A DNA stretch of 64,000 nucleotides, taken from positions 3,491 through 67,490 of the forward strand of contig JACQXF010000078.1 in NCBI GenBank assembly GCA_016208855.1. The letters run 5' to 3'. The stretch is from Nitrospirota bacterium. Lineage in GTDB: Bacteria; Nitrospirota; Thermodesulfovibrionia; UBA6902; DSMQ01. The notes beneath the pieces were generated by a model that ran no database searches, was not told the DNA's origin, and saw nothing but the letters and a program-made list of their open reading frames with translations. Shown piece by piece: positions 5,919 through 47,295 of this stretch. Position 1 is the first letter of the stretch. Each line of letters begins with the position of its first letter. The position numbers and the translations under genes are program-made.

Positions 5919-6602
5919 CTATTGCTTTGTTGTCAAGAAACTCTTTAATTTTTCTTTGTCTATTTTAAGCCCCCTGATAGTGCTCTCCATAATAACCTTT
6001 TCCTTTTTCAGCCTTGACATTGTCCTTGAGACGACCTCCCTGACTGTGCCTGCCATAGATGCTATGTCGTGGTGGGTTACTGAAAGATATGCTATACCGT
6101 CTTCCTCAGGCTGTCTCTCCTCTGCAAGCCTCAAAAGAACCAAAGCTACCCTCTGCTCAACGTCCTTAAATGTAATGTCCTCTATAATGCCTGAGAGATA
6201 CTTTATCCTTCTGCAAAGCCCCTTTAGTATCTTAAAGCCTGTTTCGCTCATCCCGTTCTCAATGACTTCTTTAAAGTTCTCCTCCGGTATGGCTACAACG
6301 GTTGTGTTCTCCACACCCGACCTGCCGCCTGTAAGAAGAGGCGCACAGCAAAAATAATCGCCCTCTTTAAGCATCTTTATTATCAACTCTCTGCCGTCTT
6401 TGGATGTCTTAAATAATTTTATTGCGCCTTCCCTGATAATAAAGAAAAACTTAATCTCGTCTGACTCTTTAAACAGTACGTCATTCTTTGCTATCCTTTT
6501 AAGGCTTGCCTTTTGACCTAAGACTATGAGGTCTTCATCTCCAAGCCCTGAAAGACATGGCAGGATACGCAGTTGATAGTTTATCTCAGCAACTGAATTC
6601 AT
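5919..6602 (-). CDS. Crp/Fnr-family transcriptional regulator
   Basis: cNMP-binding beta-barrel followed by a C-terminal HTH (VREVVSRTMSRLKKE). Located immediately upstream of the cytochrome operon. Confidence 0.75.
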   Translation of the reverse strand: MNSVAEINYQLRILPCLSGLGDEDLIVLGQKASLKRIAKNDVLFKESDEIKFFFIIREGAIKLFKTSKDGRELIIKMLKEGDYFCCAPLLTGGRSGVENTTVVAIPEENFKEVIENGMSETGFKILKGLCRRIKYLSGIIEDITFKDVEQRVALVLLRLAEERQPEEDGIAYLSVTHHDIASMAGTVREVVSRTMSRLKKEKVIMESTIRGLKIDKEKLKSFLTTKQ

Positions 6603-6730: not shown

Positions 6731-8134
6731 TTAAATCATCCAGTACGGCAGCAAATAAATCAGAGTCTTATCTTCTTCAATTATGTCTGCGTCCTCAAAT
6801 CTTCCGACAAGCACGCCGACTTTTTCTTTCTCCTTTACAAGAAAACTCTTGATTCCTTTCAAATGTTTTGTCTGAATCTTTTTATCGCTTTTAATTTCTA
6901 TTGGCAGGAGCCTCTCGGGCGTATAAACAACAATATCAACCTCTTCTTTTGTCTTGGTCCGCCAGTAGTGAAGCCTCGACTCGCGCTTCATGGAAGACAT
7001 AATCGTATTGAACTTCTCTACAATTGCATTTTCCAAAATAATGCCATACTGCCCAAGTTTTTCTATCTGAGAAATACTGCCTAAATCAAGCAGGCTGTTT
7101 CTAATGCCGAGGTCTGTAAAATACACCTTCGGCGTCTTTAGTATTTCGCTTCTGATATTCCTTGAATATGTTGTAAGGTTTTTGATAATAAATGTCTTTT
7201 CAAGAAGCACGGAGTATCTCTTTACAGTGTCTACTGTTATTTCCAGTTGAGATGCGATATTTGAATAATTGAGAAGGTCTCCTATTCTTGATGCCAGCAG
7301 TTCCATAACCTTTTGGTAAACCCAGAGCTTATCTTCTTTTACAAGATTTCTGATGTCCTGCTCAAGATACGTATTTCTGTAATTTCTAAGGAGTATCTGT
7401 TTCTTTTCCGTATCTTTAGCAAGAACGACTGCCGGCAACCCTCCAGAAACCATGTATTCTTCAAAGAGTTTCTGTATTCTTTGTTTATAGGGCATTATTT
7501 CAGCCTGATATTTCTTTAAAGCCTTTTTATCCGGAGTTGTTTCTCCAAAAATAAACTGCCATATATTTTTCTTATCAGGGGGTGTAAATCCATGCCCTCT
7601 GAATATCTCAGCCTCAGAAAAAGGAGGAACAGGCACGGACAATACCCTGCCCGCAAGGCTTTCTTTTATCTGCGCTTTCAGTTCAAGGGAAGATGAGCCT
7701 GTCAGTATCCATTTGACAGGAAGCTTTAAATCATACAGGGACTTTATGTATTCAATAAAACCGGGAAGCTTTTGGACTTCATCAATAAAGACATAAATAA
7801 GTTTTTTCTGACGCTGAACTTCTTCTCCGAGGAATCTTTCAATTATTGTCAGGAACTTGTCAAAGGATGCAGAAAGCTCCTGTCTGAGCGAAAGGTCATC
7901 AAATGTAAAATAGAAAATCCTCTCCGGCTGAATATCTCTCTTAAGGAGATCTGAAATGAGCTGAAATACAAGGGTGCTTTTACCTGTCTGTCTTAATCCA
8001 AGAAGTGAAAGTATCTCCTTTTCTTTGATGAGTCTTAAAGCCATATCGTGTATATCACGAGCGATAATGTCTGGGGGTAAAGCAAAGGCGCCGCCTCTCC
8101 ACGCATTATAACTATAAAAAAGCCTCTCGTCCAA
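6731..8134 (-). CDS. AAA+ ATPase, COG1373 family (AAA_14 + DUF4143)
   Basis: Walker A GLRQTGKST, Walker B FIDEVQ. C-terminal DUF4143-like region. One of five paralogs in 7 kb. Confidence 0.75.
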   Translation of the reverse strand: MDERLFYSYNAWRGGAFALPPDIIARDIHDMALRLIKEKEILSLLGLRQTGKSTLVFQLISDLLKRDIQPERIFYFTFDDLSLRQELSASFDKFLTIIERFLGEEVQRQKKLIYVFIDEVQKLPGFIEYIKSLYDLKLPVKWILTGSSSLELKAQIKESLAGRVLSVPVPPFSEAEIFRGHGFTPPDKKNIWQFIFGETTPDKKALKKYQAEIMPYKQRIQKLFEEYMVSGGLPAVVLAKDTEKKQILLRNYRNTYLEQDIRNLVKEDKLWVYQKVMELLASRIGDLLNYSNIASQLEITVDTVKRYSVLLEKTFIIKNLTTYSRNIRSEILKTPKVYFTDLGIRNSLLDLGSISQIEKLGQYGIILENAIVEKFNTIMSSMKRESRLHYWRTKTKEEVDIVVYTPERLLPIEIKSDKKIQTKHLKGIKSFLVKEKEKVGVLVGRFEDADIIEEDKTLIYLLPYWMI

Positions 8135-8331
8135 AACTATATACCTCTCTAAACTTTCTTAAGATAATTTAGAGTATACTATAATAATTTATCAAAAGCA
8201 ACTTACTGTCAGGGGGAAATTAGCAGATAAACTTCTTATGCTGGACATATATATGCCTTGTATTTTAGCCAAAATTTAGCTATAATCACCCTGTATTTTA
8301 GCCATATCAATACTGAAAGGCGGGGATTTAA

Positions 8332-9660
8332 ATGCGCAGGGATATTGAGAAGGACTTAATTTTATGGAAATCACAAAAAGAGCGCTATCCTTTGATAATC
8401 AGAGGCGCTCGGCAAGTAGGTAAAAGTTATCTTATTGAGACATTCGGCAGGGCGCATTTTCAAAATCTTGTTGTTGTCAACTTTGAGTTTCAGCCCCAAT
8501 TAAAGGACTGTTTTAAATCTCTTGACCCATTTGAAATAGTCAATAAACTCCAGATGCTTCTGGGCACACAGATAAGAGCGGATAATACCCTGCTTTTTTT
8601 TGATGAGATACAAGAATGTCCACAGGCAATAATGTCTCTTAGGTATTTTAAGGAGAAGATGCCAGCGCTGGCTGTTATAGCAGCGGGCTCACTCCTTGAA
8701 TTTGCCATGAGAAGCCCAGACTTTCGGATGCCTGTCGGAAGAATTCATTTCCTTTATTTAGAGCCTTTGTCCTTTTCTGAATATCTTGACGCTACAGGCA
8801 ACGAGAAATTAAGGCAATTCCTCTCAGAAGTAAGTTTGACAGACGCAATTGATGATGTTATCCATAAGAAACTCCTTGAACTGCTTCGCATATATCTTAT
8901 TGTCGGCGGAATGCCCGCGGCGCTCAAGGAATATTTGGCAACAAAGGATTTGATGAACTGTCAAAGGATTCAGACAGCGCTTTTACAGATTTACAGAAGC
9001 GATTTTGGAAAGTATGCAAAGACTTCTCAGCATAAATACTTAGAAAAGGTGTTTAATGCCGCTCCTCGTTTAGCAGGGCAAAGGATAAAGTATTCAAGCA
9101 TTGACCCTGACACGCACTCAAGAGACTTGAAGAATGCGCTGAACTTGCTTGCCCTTGCAGGCATAGTTAAGCCGATATATTTAACAAAGGCTTCGGGGCT
9201 TCCACTTGGGGCGCAGATAAACGAGCAGAAATTAAAATTGAATTTTCTTGACGTCGGGCTAATGCAAAACGCCTGCGGCTTGCAAGGGCTGTTAATTACA
9301 GAAAATGATTTTATGCAGATAAATGCAGGCGCTGTCGCTGAACAATTTACAGGACAAGAGATAGCGGCATATTCTGACAAGCATCAAGAGAGGAGCCTTT
9401 ATTTTTGGGCGAGGGAGAAAAAGGGCAGCATGGCAGAGGTTGATTATGTCATAAATATCGGCGCAGATATTATTCCTGTAGAAGTGAAGTCTGGCAAGGA
9501 AGGCTGGCTTAAATCATTAAGGATGTTCATTGAGGAGAAAAACTCAAGGTTAGGGATACGGCTGTCTCAAGACAAGTTGTCCTATTATGATAAAATACTT
9601 TCCATCCCGCTTTATATGGCAGAGCAGATGACGAGATTAACAGAAGGTTTTCTAAAGTAA
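8332..9660 (+). CDS. AAA+ ATPase, COG1373 family (AAA_14 + DUF4143)
   Basis: Walker A GARQVGKSY, FFDEIQ. Divergent paralog of the neighbouring ATPases. Confidence 0.75.
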   Translation: MRRDIEKDLILWKSQKERYPLIIRGARQVGKSYLIETFGRAHFQNLVVVNFEFQPQLKDCFKSLDPFEIVNKLQMLLGTQIRADNTLLFFDEIQECPQAIMSLRYFKEKMPALAVIAAGSLLEFAMRSPDFRMPVGRIHFLYLEPLSFSEYLDATGNEKLRQFLSEVSLTDAIDDVIHKKLLELLRIYLIVGGMPAALKEYLATKDLMNCQRIQTALLQIYRSDFGKYAKTSQHKYLEKVFNAAPRLAGQRIKYSSIDPDTHSRDLKNALNLLALAGIVKPIYLTKASGLPLGAQINEQKLKLNFLDVGLMQNACGLQGLLITENDFMQINAGAVAEQFTGQEIAAYSDKHQERSLYFWAREKKGSMAEVDYVINIGADIIPVEVKSGKEGWLKSLRMFIEEKNSRLGIRLSQDKLSYYDKILSIPLYMAEQMTRLTEGFLK

Positions 9661-9766
9661 AGGAATTTATTTTCGTCACTGCACAATACTGAAGGCGCTT
9701 TCTGCTAACTCTTCTGCCATTTGTCAGTTAGTCCTTATTATTCATAAATTATTATTATTTTTATTA

Positions 9767-9904
9767 AGGAAGCTGGCAGGGTATAGTTTTGAGCGGATTT
9801 TTTTGCTGATAAGTTCAGACAGGATGTCTGAACAAGCAAACGCCTCGCAAACGCACAGGATGTGCGTTGAGAATGAGCCGAAAAATTATACCCTGCCAGC
9901 TTCC
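9767..9904. repeat. 138-bp element bounded by perfect 18-bp terminal inverted repeats, containing two hairpins with identical GGA loops
   Basis: The arm ggaagctggcagggtata at 9767-9784 is the reverse complement of 9887-9904. Internal hairpins are ttcagaca-gga-tgtctgaa and aacgcaca-gga-tgtgcgtt. Confidence 0.6.
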
Positions 9905-10098
9905 TTATAGTTTATGAATAATCTGGGTTAGATATGTGTCTACGTTTCTCGGAAAATAAAAACGCACCTGCCTCCAACTCACTTGACTACGAAATACCTG
10001 AAAGAGAGAGATAATATCAGCGAAGAAGTCGAAAAAATATGCAGTTTGTTAAGGAAGGAGCAATTAATGTTAATAAGTAAGCCCGACCCCATGCTCCC

Positions 10099-10809
10099 AT
10101 GCAGGTCGTGTTTGAAGAGTATTTAGAGAGGGGAGGTTTTCCCAATCTGTTTGGCATCAAAGAGCCTCTGCTTTGGAAGCGGCTTGCGAGAGAAGATATT
10201 GTTGAGAAGGTCATCTACAGGGATATGGTTGAGTTATATGATATAAAGAAACCCGAGGTGCTTGAAAGGCTTTTTTTGTATTTGACCGGCATAACATCCC
10301 AAATCCTGAGCGTCTCCAATATTGCAAACTCACTCGGCCTCAGCCGTGAATACACTGAAAAATATCTTTATTATCTGGAACAGGCGATTCTCATAAAGAG
10401 GCTAAATAAATACGCTAAATCGATTGGAAAGAGCATCAGAAGTTCTGAAAAGGTTCATGTTTTGGACAGCGGATTGATAAATGCATTTTCAAGAATTGAA
10501 ACAGGGCATGCAGTGGAGACAGTTGTTGCAAGCCACCTTTTAAGAGCAAAGGAGGCTGAAATATATTATTGCAGGGAGAGATATGAGGTTGATGTGGTGA
10601 TGGCAATTGGCAGGAAGCTATATCCAATAGAGATTAAATATAAAGACAATATTACAAAGCAAGATTTGAGAGGAGTTGAGGCTTTTTGCAAGTCGTTCAG
10701 TCCGAAAAAAACGATAATAGTAAGCCGTGATGTTTTTAAAGAGGAGACATTAAACGGCTGCAAAGCATTGTTTATTCCTGCATGGTTGTTTGTTTTGCTC
10801 ATAGGATAA
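10099..10809 (+). pseudogene. Truncated COG1373/DUF4143 ATPase lacking the N-terminal P-loop domain
   Basis: The 236 aa match only the C-terminal portion of the neighbouring ATPases (YRDMVELYDIKKPE..., DUF4143 part). There is no Walker A. The upstream 9.66-10.1 kb holds the IR element and no intact N-terminus. Confidence 0.55.
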
Positions 10810-11011
10810 AACAATGAGCATGAAAAAACGACGAATGGAACAATTTGATAATTAACGACTTATCCCCGTAAGATGGCACTTAATCCACCCAAACTTAAGC
10901 CGTCCAGTGGCTTTAGAAGTTTGCCTATTTACAGGCATAATCTGTGATCTATTACGGCACAAATTGTAAATGGCATTGACAATTTGTGCTTAAAAGGGTA
11001 GCATATTTTCC

Positions 11012-12163
11012 ATGATTAATAGAAATGCCCATAACGCCCTAAAACGCTTGGCGCGCGGTTTCCCTGTAGTGACGCTTACCGGCCCTCGTCAGTCAGGCAA
11101 AACAACACTTGCAAAGATGGCATTCCCTACCAAACCCTATATTTCTCTTGAGGACCCTGATATACGAAGCATGGCAGAGGAAGACCCCCGCGGACTTCTG
11201 TCCAAATTTCCTGATGGGGCCGTATTGGATGAGGTGCAGCGTGCCCCGCATCTCTTCTCTTACCTACAGACACATATAGATGCTGATATGCGTCCAGGCA
11301 TGTTTGTGCTGACAGGCTCACAACAGTTCGGCCTGCTGTCAGGCATAAGTCAGTCCCTTGCCGGAAGAGTTGGGATGGTGCAGCTTCTTCCATTTTCCAT
11401 CAGCGAACTGAAGGCTGCCAAACGCCTTCCAGCAACCCTTGATGAACTATTATTCAGAGGTCTCTATCCTCCAATTTATGACCGTGACATTATGCCAGGC
11501 GACTGGTTTGCGGGCTACATGACCACTTATATAGAGAGAGATGTTAGGCAGCTTATCAATGTGCGTGACATTTCCACCTTTCAGAGGTTTTTAAAGATGT
11601 GCGCTGCGCGGATAGGACAACTGCTTAACCTTTCTTCTCTTGCTGCTGACTGCGGCATTACCCACAACACGGCATCTGCATGGATATCTGTGTTGGAGGC
11701 GAGTTATATTGTATGCCTGCTCAGGCCGCATCACCGCAACTTCAATAAACGCCTTGTCAAGTCGCCCAAGCTGTACTTTGTGGACGCTGGATTTGCGGCA
11801 TGGTTGCTTGGAATCAGAGAGGCAGAATATATCTCTTTTCATGCCCAACGAGGCGCACTATTTGAAAATCTTGTAATAACTGAGTTTATAAAGGAATGTT
11901 TCAATCAGGGACGTCAGTCCAATCTCTTTTTCTGGCGCGACAGCAAAGGCCTGGGAATTGATCTGATATTGGAAGAAGGCGACAACCTAAAGCCTGTTGA
12001 GATCAAATCAGGACAGACTATTGTCCCGGAATTTCTTACCGGCTTGCAGAAATGGTCTGTCTTATCCGGAAATCCAAAACGTCCTGCTATGCTTATATAT
12101 GGCGGAGAGAGGGAACTTACTAAAGGGAACATTGCCATAATGCCATGGAAGAAATTGCCGTGA
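11012..12163 (+). CDS. AAA+ ATPase, COG1373 family (AAA_14 + DUF4143)
   Basis: Walker A GPRQSGKTT, LDEVQ. Confidence 0.75.
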   Translation: MINRNAHNALKRLARGFPVVTLTGPRQSGKTTLAKMAFPTKPYISLEDPDIRSMAEEDPRGLLSKFPDGAVLDEVQRAPHLFSYLQTHIDADMRPGMFVLTGSQQFGLLSGISQSLAGRVGMVQLLPFSISELKAAKRLPATLDELLFRGLYPPIYDRDIMPGDWFAGYMTTYIERDVRQLINVRDISTFQRFLKMCAARIGQLLNLSSLAADCGITHNTASAWISVLEASYIVCLLRPHHRNFNKRLVKSPKLYFVDAGFAAWLLGIREAEYISFHAQRGALFENLVITEFIKECFNQGRQSNLFFWRDSKGLGIDLILEEGDNLKPVEIKSGQTIVPEFLTGLQKWSVLSGNPKRPAMLIYGGERELTKGNIAIMPWKKLP

Positions 12164-12171
12164 CTCCTCTC

Positions 12172-12543
12172 TTATTTAGACATCAACAAACTGCCCAGAT
12201 TCTTCGTCTTATATACTGAGACGAAGATGAAAAGAAAAATGGCCGATAATCCTTTTTCAAAGCCTCCGCCAAGACTTCCGAGCATCTTTTTTGAGAGCGC
12301 AAGGGCAAGGCTTTCTTCAAGCGAAAGATTTGGCTTTGAAAGGCTGTATCCTTCGCTAAATACATAGCTGTCCTTCTGCCTGTCATAGACAAGAGGAAAG
12401 CCTGCCACCTGCAGTGTCTGTATATAGCGGTATGCCGTCCTCTCACTTACCTCAAGGTCGTTCATGAGGGTCTTGGATGTAACCTTCTCTTTTCCGTCAA
12501 TTTTATTGAGTATTGTTATCAGGGAATCAAACTTATAAGACAT
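12172..12543 (-). pseudogene. Truncated HTH/WYL-type transcriptional regulator (N-terminal DeoR-like HTH only)
   Basis: LMNDLEVSERTAYRYIQTLQVAGFPLVYDRQKDSYVF resembles the HTH_11 + WYL N-terminus. The ORF is only 123 aa with a non-homologous tail. Confidence 0.4.
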
Positions 12544-12622
12544 GGTGTATCCTCCGTATCTAATAATCTTAGAAGGATATTACCATATCTTACTGACAAC
12601 AGCCTGTCAGGAGGGATGGATG

Positions 12623-13909
12623 CTATCTATGAAGCTTATCAAAAAAGCTTTCGTATATCTTCCAGAATGGCAATATGTATATATTGTCTAACTGCCTTTC
12701 TGTGTCATAGGTTACGATGTATCCTTTATTAATATTGAATCTCTTCATTGTCATACGAAGCCCCTCTATTTCTCTATTGATATTTGGCTCTCCAATCTCA
12801 TATGAAACCTGAACTGCATACAGTCTCTTGCCTTTCTTTAAGATAAAATCGCATTCTTTGTGTTCCTGGTAAAAGTAGAGCTCCTCAAAACCATTTTTGA
12901 GAAACTCCGTATAAACGGCATTCTCCAAGAGCCTTCCTTTGTTGTCAGAAAACTTAAATGAAACTGTATTTAAGAAACTGTTGTCAACACAGTATGCTTT
13001 CTTTTTAGACCTTGATTGAACCTTAAGAGAATAGGAAAAATTTCTTATTTCATGCATAAGAAAGCTGTCCTCAAGAATACTAACAAAGTCTTTAATGGTG
13101 TTCTCGTTGCTTCCTATTGCCCGTGCAAGGCTGTTATAAGAATAGGACGCTGAAATATTTGAGACCAGATATAACGCAAGTTCCTTGAATGTCTTTATAT
13201 CTCTTATATTGCGGCTTGTAACGCAGTCTTTAAGAATTATTGTCTCATAATACGATAGGAGTATTTCTCTCTTTAAATCCGTATCTTTAGTTTTATATAC
13301 CTCAGGGAAAGAGCCATAAAATAAGATGTCATCCAGAATGTTTAATACTGTAGGTTTATTGCTAACAAGGTCTTTATATGTTTCTATGCCCTGAGCCTTC
13401 AGAGCCTCACGGAATGATAATGGATAAACATAATCTATTATATATCTGCCTGATAATAGTCTCGCATAACCTCCTTTCAGAAGAGACGAATTTGAACCTG
13501 TGATAAATATCTTTTTAAACATTTCAGCATCGTATGCGCTCTTGACAAATCTCTCCCAGCCAGATACATTCTGAACTTCATCAAGAAAGAGAAATCTTGT
13601 CTTTTTCCTTGTAATCTTCTCCGAGGTTTCAATGACCCTGTATAGCTCTTTTGCGTCTCTCCATACCTCAGAAAAGAAAGGGTCGTCAAGATTTACATAG
13701 AGAATGCTTTGGGACTCAATGCTCTCTAATAGGTGATTTATCAAAAGCTTAAAAAGGGTTGATTTTCCGCTTCTTCTTACCCCAAGCAGAACCTGAATTT
13801 CCTTTGCCTTTGTTTTTTTTATAATAGAGGCGAGCAAGTCACGATCAAATAGGGGAGCGTATTTCTTCCCAAACCAATGCTTATTTTGTGTTATTATGGC
13901 TTGTTCCAT
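12623..13909 (-). CDS. AAA+ ATPase, COG1373 family (AAA_14 + DUF4143)
   Basis: Walker A GVRRSGKST, FLDEVQ. Confidence 0.75.
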   Translation of the reverse strand: MEQAIITQNKHWFGKKYAPLFDRDLLASIIKKTKAKEIQVLLGVRRSGKSTLFKLLINHLLESIESQSILYVNLDDPFFSEVWRDAKELYRVIETSEKITRKKTRFLFLDEVQNVSGWERFVKSAYDAEMFKKIFITGSNSSLLKGGYARLLSGRYIIDYVYPLSFREALKAQGIETYKDLVSNKPTVLNILDDILFYGSFPEVYKTKDTDLKREILLSYYETIILKDCVTSRNIRDIKTFKELALYLVSNISASYSYNSLARAIGSNENTIKDFVSILEDSFLMHEIRNFSYSLKVQSRSKKKAYCVDNSFLNTVSFKFSDNKGRLLENAVYTEFLKNGFEELYFYQEHKECDFILKKGKRLYAVQVSYEIGEPNINREIEGLRMTMKRFNINKGYIVTYDTERQLDNIYILPFWKIYESFFDKLHR

Positions 13910-26900: not shown

Positions 26901-27056
26901 GAGGTTTTTGCAAAAGTCCTAAAAACCGCCCTCCCCCTTGAGGGGGGAGGGTTAGGGTGGGGGGTAAAAGATAGAAGTTATCAATGAGTTTTATTTTCAC
27001 CCTCCCCTTCATCCCCTCCCCTCAAGGGAGGGGAAACATACTTTTGCAAGAGCCTC
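26901..27056. repeat. MITE-like element A with imperfect ~17-bp terminal inverted repeats (gagg..ttgcaaaagt) and two G-rich palindromes
   Basis: Left end gaggtttttgcaaaagt, right end acttttgcaagagcctc. Internal ccctcccccttgaggggggaggg and cccctcccctcaagggagggg. Confidence 0.6.
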
Positions 27057-29272: not shown

Positions 29273-29382
29273 TGCTTTTATCATTTCCTAATTTTTGGGC
29301 TGTCCCGCAATTATCCGCCCACTCATCCCATAACACTTTTTTCATCATCTTGCCATTTCCTGATTTATTAATTATCTCAGTT

Positions 29383-29481
29383 GAGCCTCTTGCAAAAGTA
29401 TCGGGGAAATCGGTTTTGCCGTCATACCCGCCCCCGATTAAGACTTCGGGAATAACAAATAAAGACTTTTGCAAGAGCCTC
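29383..29481. repeat. MITE-like element B (same family)
   Basis: gagcctcttgcaaaagt ... acttttgcaagagcctc, flanking gtcatacccgcccccgattaag. Confidence 0.6.
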
Positions 29482-29618
29482 AGTCTATTTAGTATCGATA
29501 TAAGGCAGATATTGCAAAGGGCATGCCAGCAGAAATTACATTTAAAATTAGATGGTTAGCTTCTCAAGGGAAAATAAAGATGGGGGATCTGCCCTGATAG
29601 GCAGGTGAAATGCCCCGT

Positions 29619-46991: not shown

Positions 46992-47054
46992 TAGTGTCTG
47001 AAAATTTCAATGACGGACAGTGGTTCCCAGAAATAGAGATAGAAAACACTAATC

Positions 47055-47172
47055 ATTTAAAATCCCCCTCCCATTGCGGGAGGGGGCGAGGGGGAGGGGT
47101 AACCTTTTTGGTTATTCTTCACCCTCACCCTAACCCTCTCCCGTCAAGGGAGAGGGAACTTTTGGAGGTTCC
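47055..47172. repeat. Degenerate G-rich palindromic element E (same family)
   Basis: cccctcccattgcgggaggggg and ccctctcccgtcaagggagaggg, ending aacttttggaggttcc. Confidence 0.5.
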
Positions 47173-47295
47173 TATCTCTATTTTTCGGAGTGGTTAGACA
47201 AGAGATAGAGAAAGCAGCAAATAGAGAGTACAGAGAAATAGATAGGTAGAGCGTGCGTGAAAAGAGAGTAGCTGCTATGAGCCATGAGCCATAAG

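Follow-up and report, generated by a model that had tools for sequence, protein, structure and literature searches.

The 64-kb window analyzed here, by which we mean the whole stretch of Nitrospirota DNA under study, contains an island of five paralogous AAA_14/DUF4143 ATPase genes at 6731–13909, all assigned with Pfam. These lie at 6731–8134 (− strand), 8332–9660 (+ strand), 10099–10809 (+ strand; NCBI start 10108), 11012–12163 (+ strand) and 12623–13909 (− strand). The island also holds an HTH_11 gene and sits just upstream of hisG. In relatives with approximately 85% identical HisG, hisG is directly preceded by an oxidoreductase gene or by other genes, and the ATPase island is therefore a genome-specific variable region. 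Chemoreceptors are also encoded in the window, and judging from these genes the source organism is probably motile. The third ATPase gene is truncated, as an earlier reading of this DNA based on sequence alone (hereafter the sequence-only reading) had proposed: according to Pfam, it retains only the DUF4143 half of an AAA_14 plus DUF4143 ATPase. Its product matches P0001 at 100%, and its closest homologues that possess the AAA_14 half are P0002, of 339 aa and itself short at the N-terminus, and P0006, of 366 aa, with homology to both beginning at about 10099.

Between the two co-oriented ATPase genes that end at 9660 and begin at 10099, 105 nt past the stop codon of the former, lies an element of 143 bp bounded by an inverted repeat. 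The arms of this repeat, at 9765–9790 (TAAGGAAGCTGGCAGGGTATAGTTTT) and 9882–9907 (AAAATTATACCCTGCCAGCTTCCTTA), are 26 nt long, differ from perfect complementarity by one mismatch and share a perfect core of 21 bp, which makes the element the most perfect among the long inverted repeats of the window. The lone mismatch sets a G opposite a T and so becomes a G–U pair in RNA of the + strand. Although the sequence-only reading recognized a real repeat, it described it as only 18 bp long; the two 18-mers are indeed exact reverse complements, with the left one displaced by one base, to 9768–9785, opposite 9887–9904. In the MFE fold of the + strand the two arms pair to form a long closing helix, P1, which is also marked by covariation.

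The interior of the element, read on the + strand, begins with a conserved 5' junction block, CGGAUUU, followed by the 5' strand of a covarying helix, P2, that encloses the first hairpin (together 9794–9806); the block carries the third GGA of the element (9795–9797). Hairpin 1 (9813–9833; GTTCAGACA-GGA-TGTCTGAAC) and hairpin 2 (9850–9868; AACGCACA-GGA-TGTGCGTT) both appear as inverted repeats with covarying stems, a GGA loop and a CAGGAUG tip. The tip of each displays one of the two occurrences of ACAGGAUGU, and both contain the 9-mer ACAGGATGT, at a distance of 36 nt from start to start. The twin GGA-loop hairpins noted previously are thus both present; the stem of hairpin 2 has 8 bp, and that of hairpin 1 has 9 bp instead of the 8 bp first reported. 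The 3' strand of P2 (GCAAACGCC, 9836–9844) was delimited by RNAalifold and covariation, and in the window copy this helix includes an internal mismatch of 2 nt. A short helix, P3 (UCG/UGA, 9845–9870), surrounds hairpin 2; its 3' side reads CGA in the other members of the family described below, so that their last P3 pair, G–C, is replaced by G–U in the window copy. A conserved 3' junction block, GAGAAUGA (9869–9876), completes the interior. RNA of the + strand folds with −74.9 kcal/mol, compared with −35.1 ± 3.6 kcal/mol for shuffled sequences (z = −11), which is far beyond chance.

A second, outer inverted repeat of 16 nt (94%) surrounds the element, with its left arm at 9737–9752 pairing with its right arm at 9907–9922. 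It is specific to the window copy, and no equivalent was found in the related copies L223, L217 or L231. Other structured DNA in the window comprises a GC-rich 40-nt inverted repeat in an intergenic gap at 26930–27033 (73% complementary, CCTCCCCCTTGAGGGGGGAGGG...), which may be REP-like, as well as two inverted repeats at 47025–47189 and 29382–29482; the first has arms of 28 nt (79%) separated by 109 nt, and the second has arms of 18 nt (94%) separated by 65 nt.

The proximity of the element to a truncated gene had led to the proposal that it occupies the place of the missing N-terminal half of the ATPase and that it caused the truncation. Neither suggestion is borne out at this locus. The element is positioned approximately 190 bp upstream of the truncated gene, where homology to the intact proteins has not yet begun. 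The region 9661–10098 contains no significant remnant of the AAA_14 half, with only chance-level tblastn matches (E 2.5–8) and no HMM signal; a clean insertion of the element into an intact ATPase gene is therefore unsupported. Furthermore, another Thermodesulfovibrionia MAG (L214) carries a DUF4143-only gene 71% identical to 10099–10809, and a BLAST and motif scan detected no copy of the element at that locus. The same absence across the ATPase homologue contexts L214–L216 indicates that the element is not a DUF4143-associated motif.

Relatives of the element were found in metagenomes. A scan for the loop pattern ACAGGATGT-N17–31-GCACAGGATGTGC returned 15 loci, six of which share the architecture of the window copy, represented by L223, by L217/L224/L230 (one locus in three samples) and by L231. 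Identity to the window copy amounts to 86% over 132 nt for L223 and to 80% over 128 nt for L217/L224/L230; the L231 copy is more divergent. Beyond the element, the L223 and L217/L224/L230 contigs show no similarity to the window, and their flanks are unrelated. The carrier of L230 belongs to Nitrospirota. The Usp protein encoded beside the L231 copy falls in a 90% cluster whose named member comes from a Candidatus Latescibacterota MAG, which suggests that the L231-type locus probably derives from Latescibacterota. A synteny search then recovered ten contigs (L245–L254) that encode a close Usp variant and contain the same hemN–usp spacer at approximately 75% identity; at this orthologous position, L245, L246 and L248 provide three more variants of the element, found by synteny and not by the loop pattern. 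The family accordingly comprises seven distinct sequences: the window copy, two further Nitrospirota loci and one Latescibacterota-like locus in four variants.

Other searches were negative. The 14-mer GGAAGCTGGCAGGG gave more than 120 chance matches in genome contigs and no relatives, and a BLAST of the element against plasmids yielded no match. In viral contigs, two family-specific patterns retrieved nothing real and the two-loop pattern retrieved only tandem palindromes; these palindromes, GGGGACAGGATGTCCCC, occur in the phage-like contigs L028, L034, L091 and L093 and have the same ACAGGATGT core in their hairpin tips. A search for further copies had been suggested in the sequence-only reading. 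Relatives turned up in metagenomes, with a single context in each sample; neither the 64-kb window nor about 106 kb of related genomes yielded a second copy.

The four genomic contexts of the family are unrelated. Besides the position of the window copy between ATPase genes, the L223 copy lies 18 nt beyond a cbi gene and antisense to it, the L230 copy, also antisense, exactly fills the spacer between tupB and tupC in a tungstate transporter operon and lies 3 nt past the stop codon of tupB, and the L231 copy and the L245–L254 locus lie between the divergent genes hemN and usp. The GGA strand is sense in two of these contexts and antisense to the adjacent gene in the other two.

All seven sequences have the same architecture, in which the long P1 closing helix is joined by two arms with CAGGA(U/A)G at their tips. 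Covariance models built from one part of the family recover members of the other: R1, built from the three Nitrospirota copies, finds L231 with 56 bits (E about 1e-9), and R2, built from the four Latescibacterota-like copies only, finds the window copy with 58.6 bits (E 2e-10), L223 with 69 bits and L217 with 56.6 bits. The best background score in 684 kb of unrelated genomes was 18.8 bits. The seven sequences were aligned by fitting them to the model, and the four Latescibacterota-like ones are closely related to each other; in this alignment, standard pairs make up 93.7% of cells, and 29 of the 42 base pairs have changed on both sides with pairing kept. These two-sided changes fall in P1 (16/18 pairs), P2 (7/9), hairpin 1 (3/5) and hairpin 2 (3/7). 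None of 500 shuffles reached the observed value, and controls with slid partners gave 3–8 pairs. The four-sequence set led to a matching result, and RNAalifold, unaided, arrived at the same architecture. The pattern is also visible in individual comparisons: the P1 helices of the window copy and L223 are separated by two double substitutions and the insertion of one base pair, each of them compensated, and the P1 of L231 is unrelated in sequence to those of the other copies. Uncompensated defects occur in the variants L245, L246 and L248.

Conservation of sequence, by comparison, is concentrated in the interior. The 5' junction reads GGATTT (CGGAUUU) in six of the seven members, the exception being L248 with CTGATTT; UCG precedes hairpin 2 in all seven, extended to CCUCG in the four copies found by pattern; and the 3' junction GAGAAUGA is kept in six, L248 again differing (GAGATTGA; RNA GAGAUUGA). 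Although the search pattern did not require it, GAGAAUGA is invariant in the four pattern-found members. Both loops contain GGA in all seven members, a feature that the search pattern imposed on four of them and that the other three, found by synteny, display independently of it. In these synteny-found orthologues, hairpin 2 retains ACAGGAUGU on a re-paired stem and hairpin 1 carries CAGGAAG. The element is thus very probably a conserved structured element, and it defines a small, previously uncatalogued family of folded, RNA-like elements of approximately 130–145 nt that spans two bacterial phyla, Nitrospirota and probably Latescibacterota.

These data also bear on whether the element is, or once was, a mobile palindrome of the MITE or REP/ERIC type whose arrival or recombination was tied to the loss of the 5' half of the ATPase gene. 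In favor of this, its homology ends sharply in four unrelated contexts and in both orientations, as befits a discrete module, and the window copy belongs to the genome-specific region with its five ATPase paralogues, beside the truncated one. Against it speak the single copy seen in the 64-kb window and the absence of any from 106 kb of relatives' DNA, the stable inheritance at one syntenic locus in the Latescibacterota-like lineage, and the DUF4143-only gene of L214, at whose locus BLAST and a motif scan found no copy. The ends of the element are also at odds with such an origin. TA is found at both ends of P1 in an AT-rich, palindromic flank, but no direct repeat abutting P1 recurs across the four contexts, which answers in the negative the question of target-site duplications raised in the sequence-only reading. 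The only nominal duplication is an 11-nt near-repeat flanking the L217 copy, with one mismatch and at 17 nt from P1, and it was matched by 10 of 300 shuffles. Terminal inverted repeats that are recognized by a transposase should be conserved, with a freely varying interior, whereas here sequence conservation is lowest in the terminal arms, which vary in a compensatory way and enclose a conserved interior. The MITE interpretation therefore fails on its variable arms, on the absence of a recurring target-site duplication and on the lack of extra copies in the DNA searched, and we consider mobility linked to the gene truncation improbable.

ERIC/IRU and Correia-type repeats, which are bacterial MITEs, resemble the element in some respects. 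They are long imperfect palindromes of similar size (127–155 bp), they are located between genes, including in operon spacers, and in either orientation, as is the element, whose occupancy also varies among relatives, and the TA at the ends of the window copy is likewise reminiscent of them. However, they occur in multiple copies and have conserved terminal repeats as well as TA duplications, and the element is apparently present in one copy, with variable, covarying ends and no recurring duplication. Transcribed hairpins of ERIC/IRU and Correia-type repeats could be RNase targets. With respect to the L230 copy, in relatives whose TupB is 89% identical the spacer that the element fills is occupied by other small palindromes, an observation in favor of a mobile origin. 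Such palindromes were seen in related Nitrospirota at L232 (3194–3274), L233 (3203–3225) and L234 (3203–3300); some of them begin with GTAG, like REP sequences, and from its sequence the tupB–tupC spacer has the appearance of a hot spot at which palindromes insert. The element may be mobile or subject to replacement in some form, because its contexts and orientations vary and because this spacer holds other palindromes in relatives.

A further observation concerns the hemN–usp locus. L231 and L245/L248 are 80% identical in the element and 67–74% identical in the flanks. Between L245 and L248, identity falls from 99.7% in the 310 nt upstream of the element to 91.5% in the element itself and to only 75.7% in the 200 nt downstream; from these values there seems to be a recombination boundary at the 5' edge of the element.

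Folding both strands, a check suggested in the sequence-only reading, revealed a preference for one of them. The + strand, which carries the GGA loops, is more stable than its complement by 3–9 kcal/mol in all seven members, and it has more G–U pairs in the four members in which these were counted. In the window copy, both the P1 "mismatch" and the last P3 pair are G–U pairs on this strand; in L246, one change would favor the opposite strand. The bias is consistent but modest, and a strand bias in G–U pairs is unexpected for an element that acts as double-stranded DNA, including a mobile palindrome. The element probably acts as a + strand RNA and may be transcribed as its own unit. A consensus scan identified a candidate σ70-like promoter at 9721–9750 on the + strand (TTGTCA, a 17–18 nt spacer and ATAAAT/TAAATT) that would start transcription about 8 nt before P1. 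This candidate is partly shared, as ATTCATAAATT also precedes the L223 copy; L217 and L231 lack an evident site of this kind, and no canonical or intrinsic terminator was found for the window element.

Two readings that do not invoke a folded RNA were also considered. A small protein could be translated from the AUG in hairpin 1 (MSEQ...HRMCVENE...), since the frame is open from this AUG through that of hairpin 2 in the window, L223, L217 and L231 copies and the two codons are exactly 36 nt apart in all four; alternatively, the hairpins, both of which are perfect palindromes as DNA, could form an operator pair for a DNA-binding dimer. The reading frame, however, lacks a spaced Shine–Dalgarno sequence, differs in length and C-terminus in every copy (18–37 codons) and has accumulated mostly non-synonymous substitutions, and 18 open codons are unremarkable. 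Moreover, neither a small protein nor an operator explains why the P1 and P2 helices covary over 90 nt. We regard both as highly improbable and judge the corresponding ORF of the window (9822–9907) to be incidental. Further candidates were rejected as well: a σ54 promoter and a hammerhead core on the basis of the sequence, a retron in view of the lack of an RT gene nearby, and a riboswitch in view of the lack of a consistent downstream gene.

Comparison with known RNA families yielded one informative neighbor. No match in the Rfam scan of the window reached any gathering score, and the only non-trivial resemblance, on the + strand and over the full length of the model, was to TwoAYGGAY (RF01731), with 25.0 bits against a gathering score of 43. 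L217 scored 28.3 bits, likewise short of that score, and the other five members were without a match, L223 and L231 being unlisted at E ≤ 1 and L245 and L248 at E ≤ 0.1. TwoAYGGAY is an RNA motif described by Weinberg et al. 2010 (PMC2864571), proposed to bind CsrA (PMC4333381) and placed in the Rfam clan of Csr-Rsm protein-binding RNAs. Both RNAs have a long, nearly perfect closing helix around two side-by-side hairpins with ...CA(N)GGAUG... tips, the match lies on the same strand, and they have a similar 3' junction (GCGUC-AG-AU). P1 of TwoAYGGAY is described as frequently very long, one example having 24 bp with 2 mismatches, and P1 of the element, with 26 bp including one G–U pair around two adjacent hairpins, is of the same kind.

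The loops, by contrast, depart from the motif after which the family is named: they read A-GGA-U/A (ACA-GGA-UGU or -AGU), without a pyrimidine between A and GG, and in the cmscan alignment a one-base deletion has to be placed in the loop. The element further differs in that each of its hairpins stands on a helix of its own (P2 and P3), in its junction blocks CGGAUUU, UCG and GAGAAUGA, and in its hosts, which are Nitrospirota and Latescibacterota, whereas TwoAYGGAY is found in Clostridia, gammaproteobacteria and gut samples. Psychromonas ingrahamii has at least five copies of TwoAYGGAY, a multiplicity that would favor a mobile history, but the element itself appears to be single-copy. TwoAYGGAY is the closest catalogued relative of the element.

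CsrA is a widespread global translational regulator, and to our knowledge its titration by RNA decoys is established in Gammaproteobacteria only. The repeat consensus of the decoy CsrB is reportedly CAGGA(U/C/A)G, which the CAGGAUG tips of the element fit, as does the CAGGAAG of hairpin 1 in the synteny-found orthologues. For CsrA, SELEX yielded the consensus RUACARGGAUGU, in which ACA and GGA are 100% conserved and GGA lies in the loop of a hairpin, and one CsrA dimer can bridge sites that are 10–63 nt apart (PMC7652899). The element agrees with this consensus in its ACA, GGA and GU, presents ACA-GGA-UGU twice and has a spacing of 36 nt, within the range given. These two sites, together with a nearest catalogued relative in the Csr-Rsm clan, lead us to favor a small RNA that would bind a CsrA dimer.

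On this proposal, the + strand RNA would fold into the nearly perfect, long P1 and a junction with two arms, each ending in a stable hairpin with a CAGGA(U/A)G tip (ACA-GGA-UGU), and the junction would present the conserved blocks. One CsrA dimer would then bind both GGA tips through its two RNA-binding faces, and the RNA would titrate CsrA or be controlled by it, with P1 protecting the RNA or serving as a processing site. A Csr/Rsm-type decoy, that is, a small structured RNA presenting two CsrA-type sites, is in our view the best explanation of the element, and we hold it tentatively, with confidence just below even. That CsrA in particular is the partner we treat as possible, at somewhat less than even confidence.

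Known Csr/Rsm sRNAs (CsrB, CsrC and RsmX/Y/Z; clan CL00106) resemble the element in displaying GGA motifs in hairpin loops, and differ from it in several ways. They contain 4–22 sites, compared with two loop sites and one junction GGA here, and the element has very stable stems, triloops and a long closing duplex, and no identified BarA/UvrY-type promoter or intrinsic terminator. Its stems of 8–9 contiguous pairs and loops of 3 nt argue against binding by CsrA, given that SELEX ligands mostly have at most 4 pairs and 6-nt loops and that very stable stems may disfavor CsrA (PMC7652899). The element also lacks a nucleotide between ACA and GGA that is present in both the SELEX and the TwoAYGGAY consensus. 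Tandem hairpin arrays with ...CACAGGATGTG... tips were seen in L221 (1479–1650, in 32-nt units), L228, L229 (5800–5980), L219 and L226, and that of L229 gave a sub-threshold match to CsrB (29 bits against a cut-off of 71); to judge by their sequences, these metagenome arrays may be multi-site CsrA decoys. L226, one of the chance matches among the metagenome contigs, also contains a c-di-GMP-I-GGC riboswitch at 6275–6363 on the − strand (67 bits against a gathering score of 59).

As for the host, a functional CsrA has been described from Nitrospira, a member of Nitrospirota (PMC13443453), and literature searches for CsrA in Thermodesulfovibrio returned nothing. A search for csrA in the 64-kb window and in 227 kb from metagenome, viral and related-genome loci (L214–L254) gave no match, an uninformative negative. 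The source genome may encode CsrA, and a motile, CsrA-bearing host is plausible.

A structured RNA need not be a CsrA decoy. The element could act in cis, as a REP/ERIC-like stabilizer, an RNase III site or a bidirectional terminator, or its GGA loops could serve another partner. The fold conserved by covariation would be expected here too, and the position just past a stop codon in the window, L223 and L230 contexts suits an element at the 3' end of a transcript, although the L231 and L245–L254 copies lie between divergent genes and not at a 3' end. A perfect duplex of 20–26 bp, such as P1 provides, has the size of an RNase III substrate. The lack of a promoter or terminator common to the loci and the occurrence in either orientation relative to neighboring genes are also compatible with a cis role, and the antisense GGA strand in two of the four contexts and the location of the L230 copy inside an operon spacer would be odd for an independent sRNA gene. 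On the other hand, the GGA strand is the better-folding one throughout the family, including where it is antisense to its neighbor, and a stabilizer or terminator requires neither conserved interior blocks nor GGA loops that are kept across two phyla. We rate a structured RNA with a role other than that of a CsrA decoy as rather unlikely.

The more general conclusion, that the locus encodes a structured small RNA, one of the possibilities raised in the sequence-only reading, is supported because the fold is kept through compensatory changes in seven homologues, the GGA strand folds better and the loops fit the CsrA consensus. The element is more likely a small regulatory RNA than the relic of a jumping gene, and in genome annotation the locus should not be labeled a MITE or transposon scar.

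Returning to the CsrA decoy, its presence in these lineages would be of particular interest. The hosts of the element belong to lineages that are expected to antagonize CsrA by FliW, not by sRNAs, and whether sRNAs and FliW ever act together was listed as an open question in a 2020 review (PMC7652899). The family might represent a portable module, present in single copy, that encodes a CsrA-decoy RNA and has spread between Nitrospirota and Latescibacterota; in this specific form we consider the idea unlikely. If true, it would be the first family of sRNA-type CsrA antagonists outside Proteobacteria, and FliW and a decoy RNA would coexist. The combination of a conserved interior, a fast-covarying long closing helix and scattered genomic positions is a pattern that needs explanation, and should CsrA not be the partner, the family would still be a new structured-RNA candidate from poorly studied phyla. 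Taken together, the family, which displays two near-consensus CsrA sites in Nitrospirota and Latescibacterota, provides a concrete, testable candidate and sheds light on the so far unexplained TwoAYGGAY motif.
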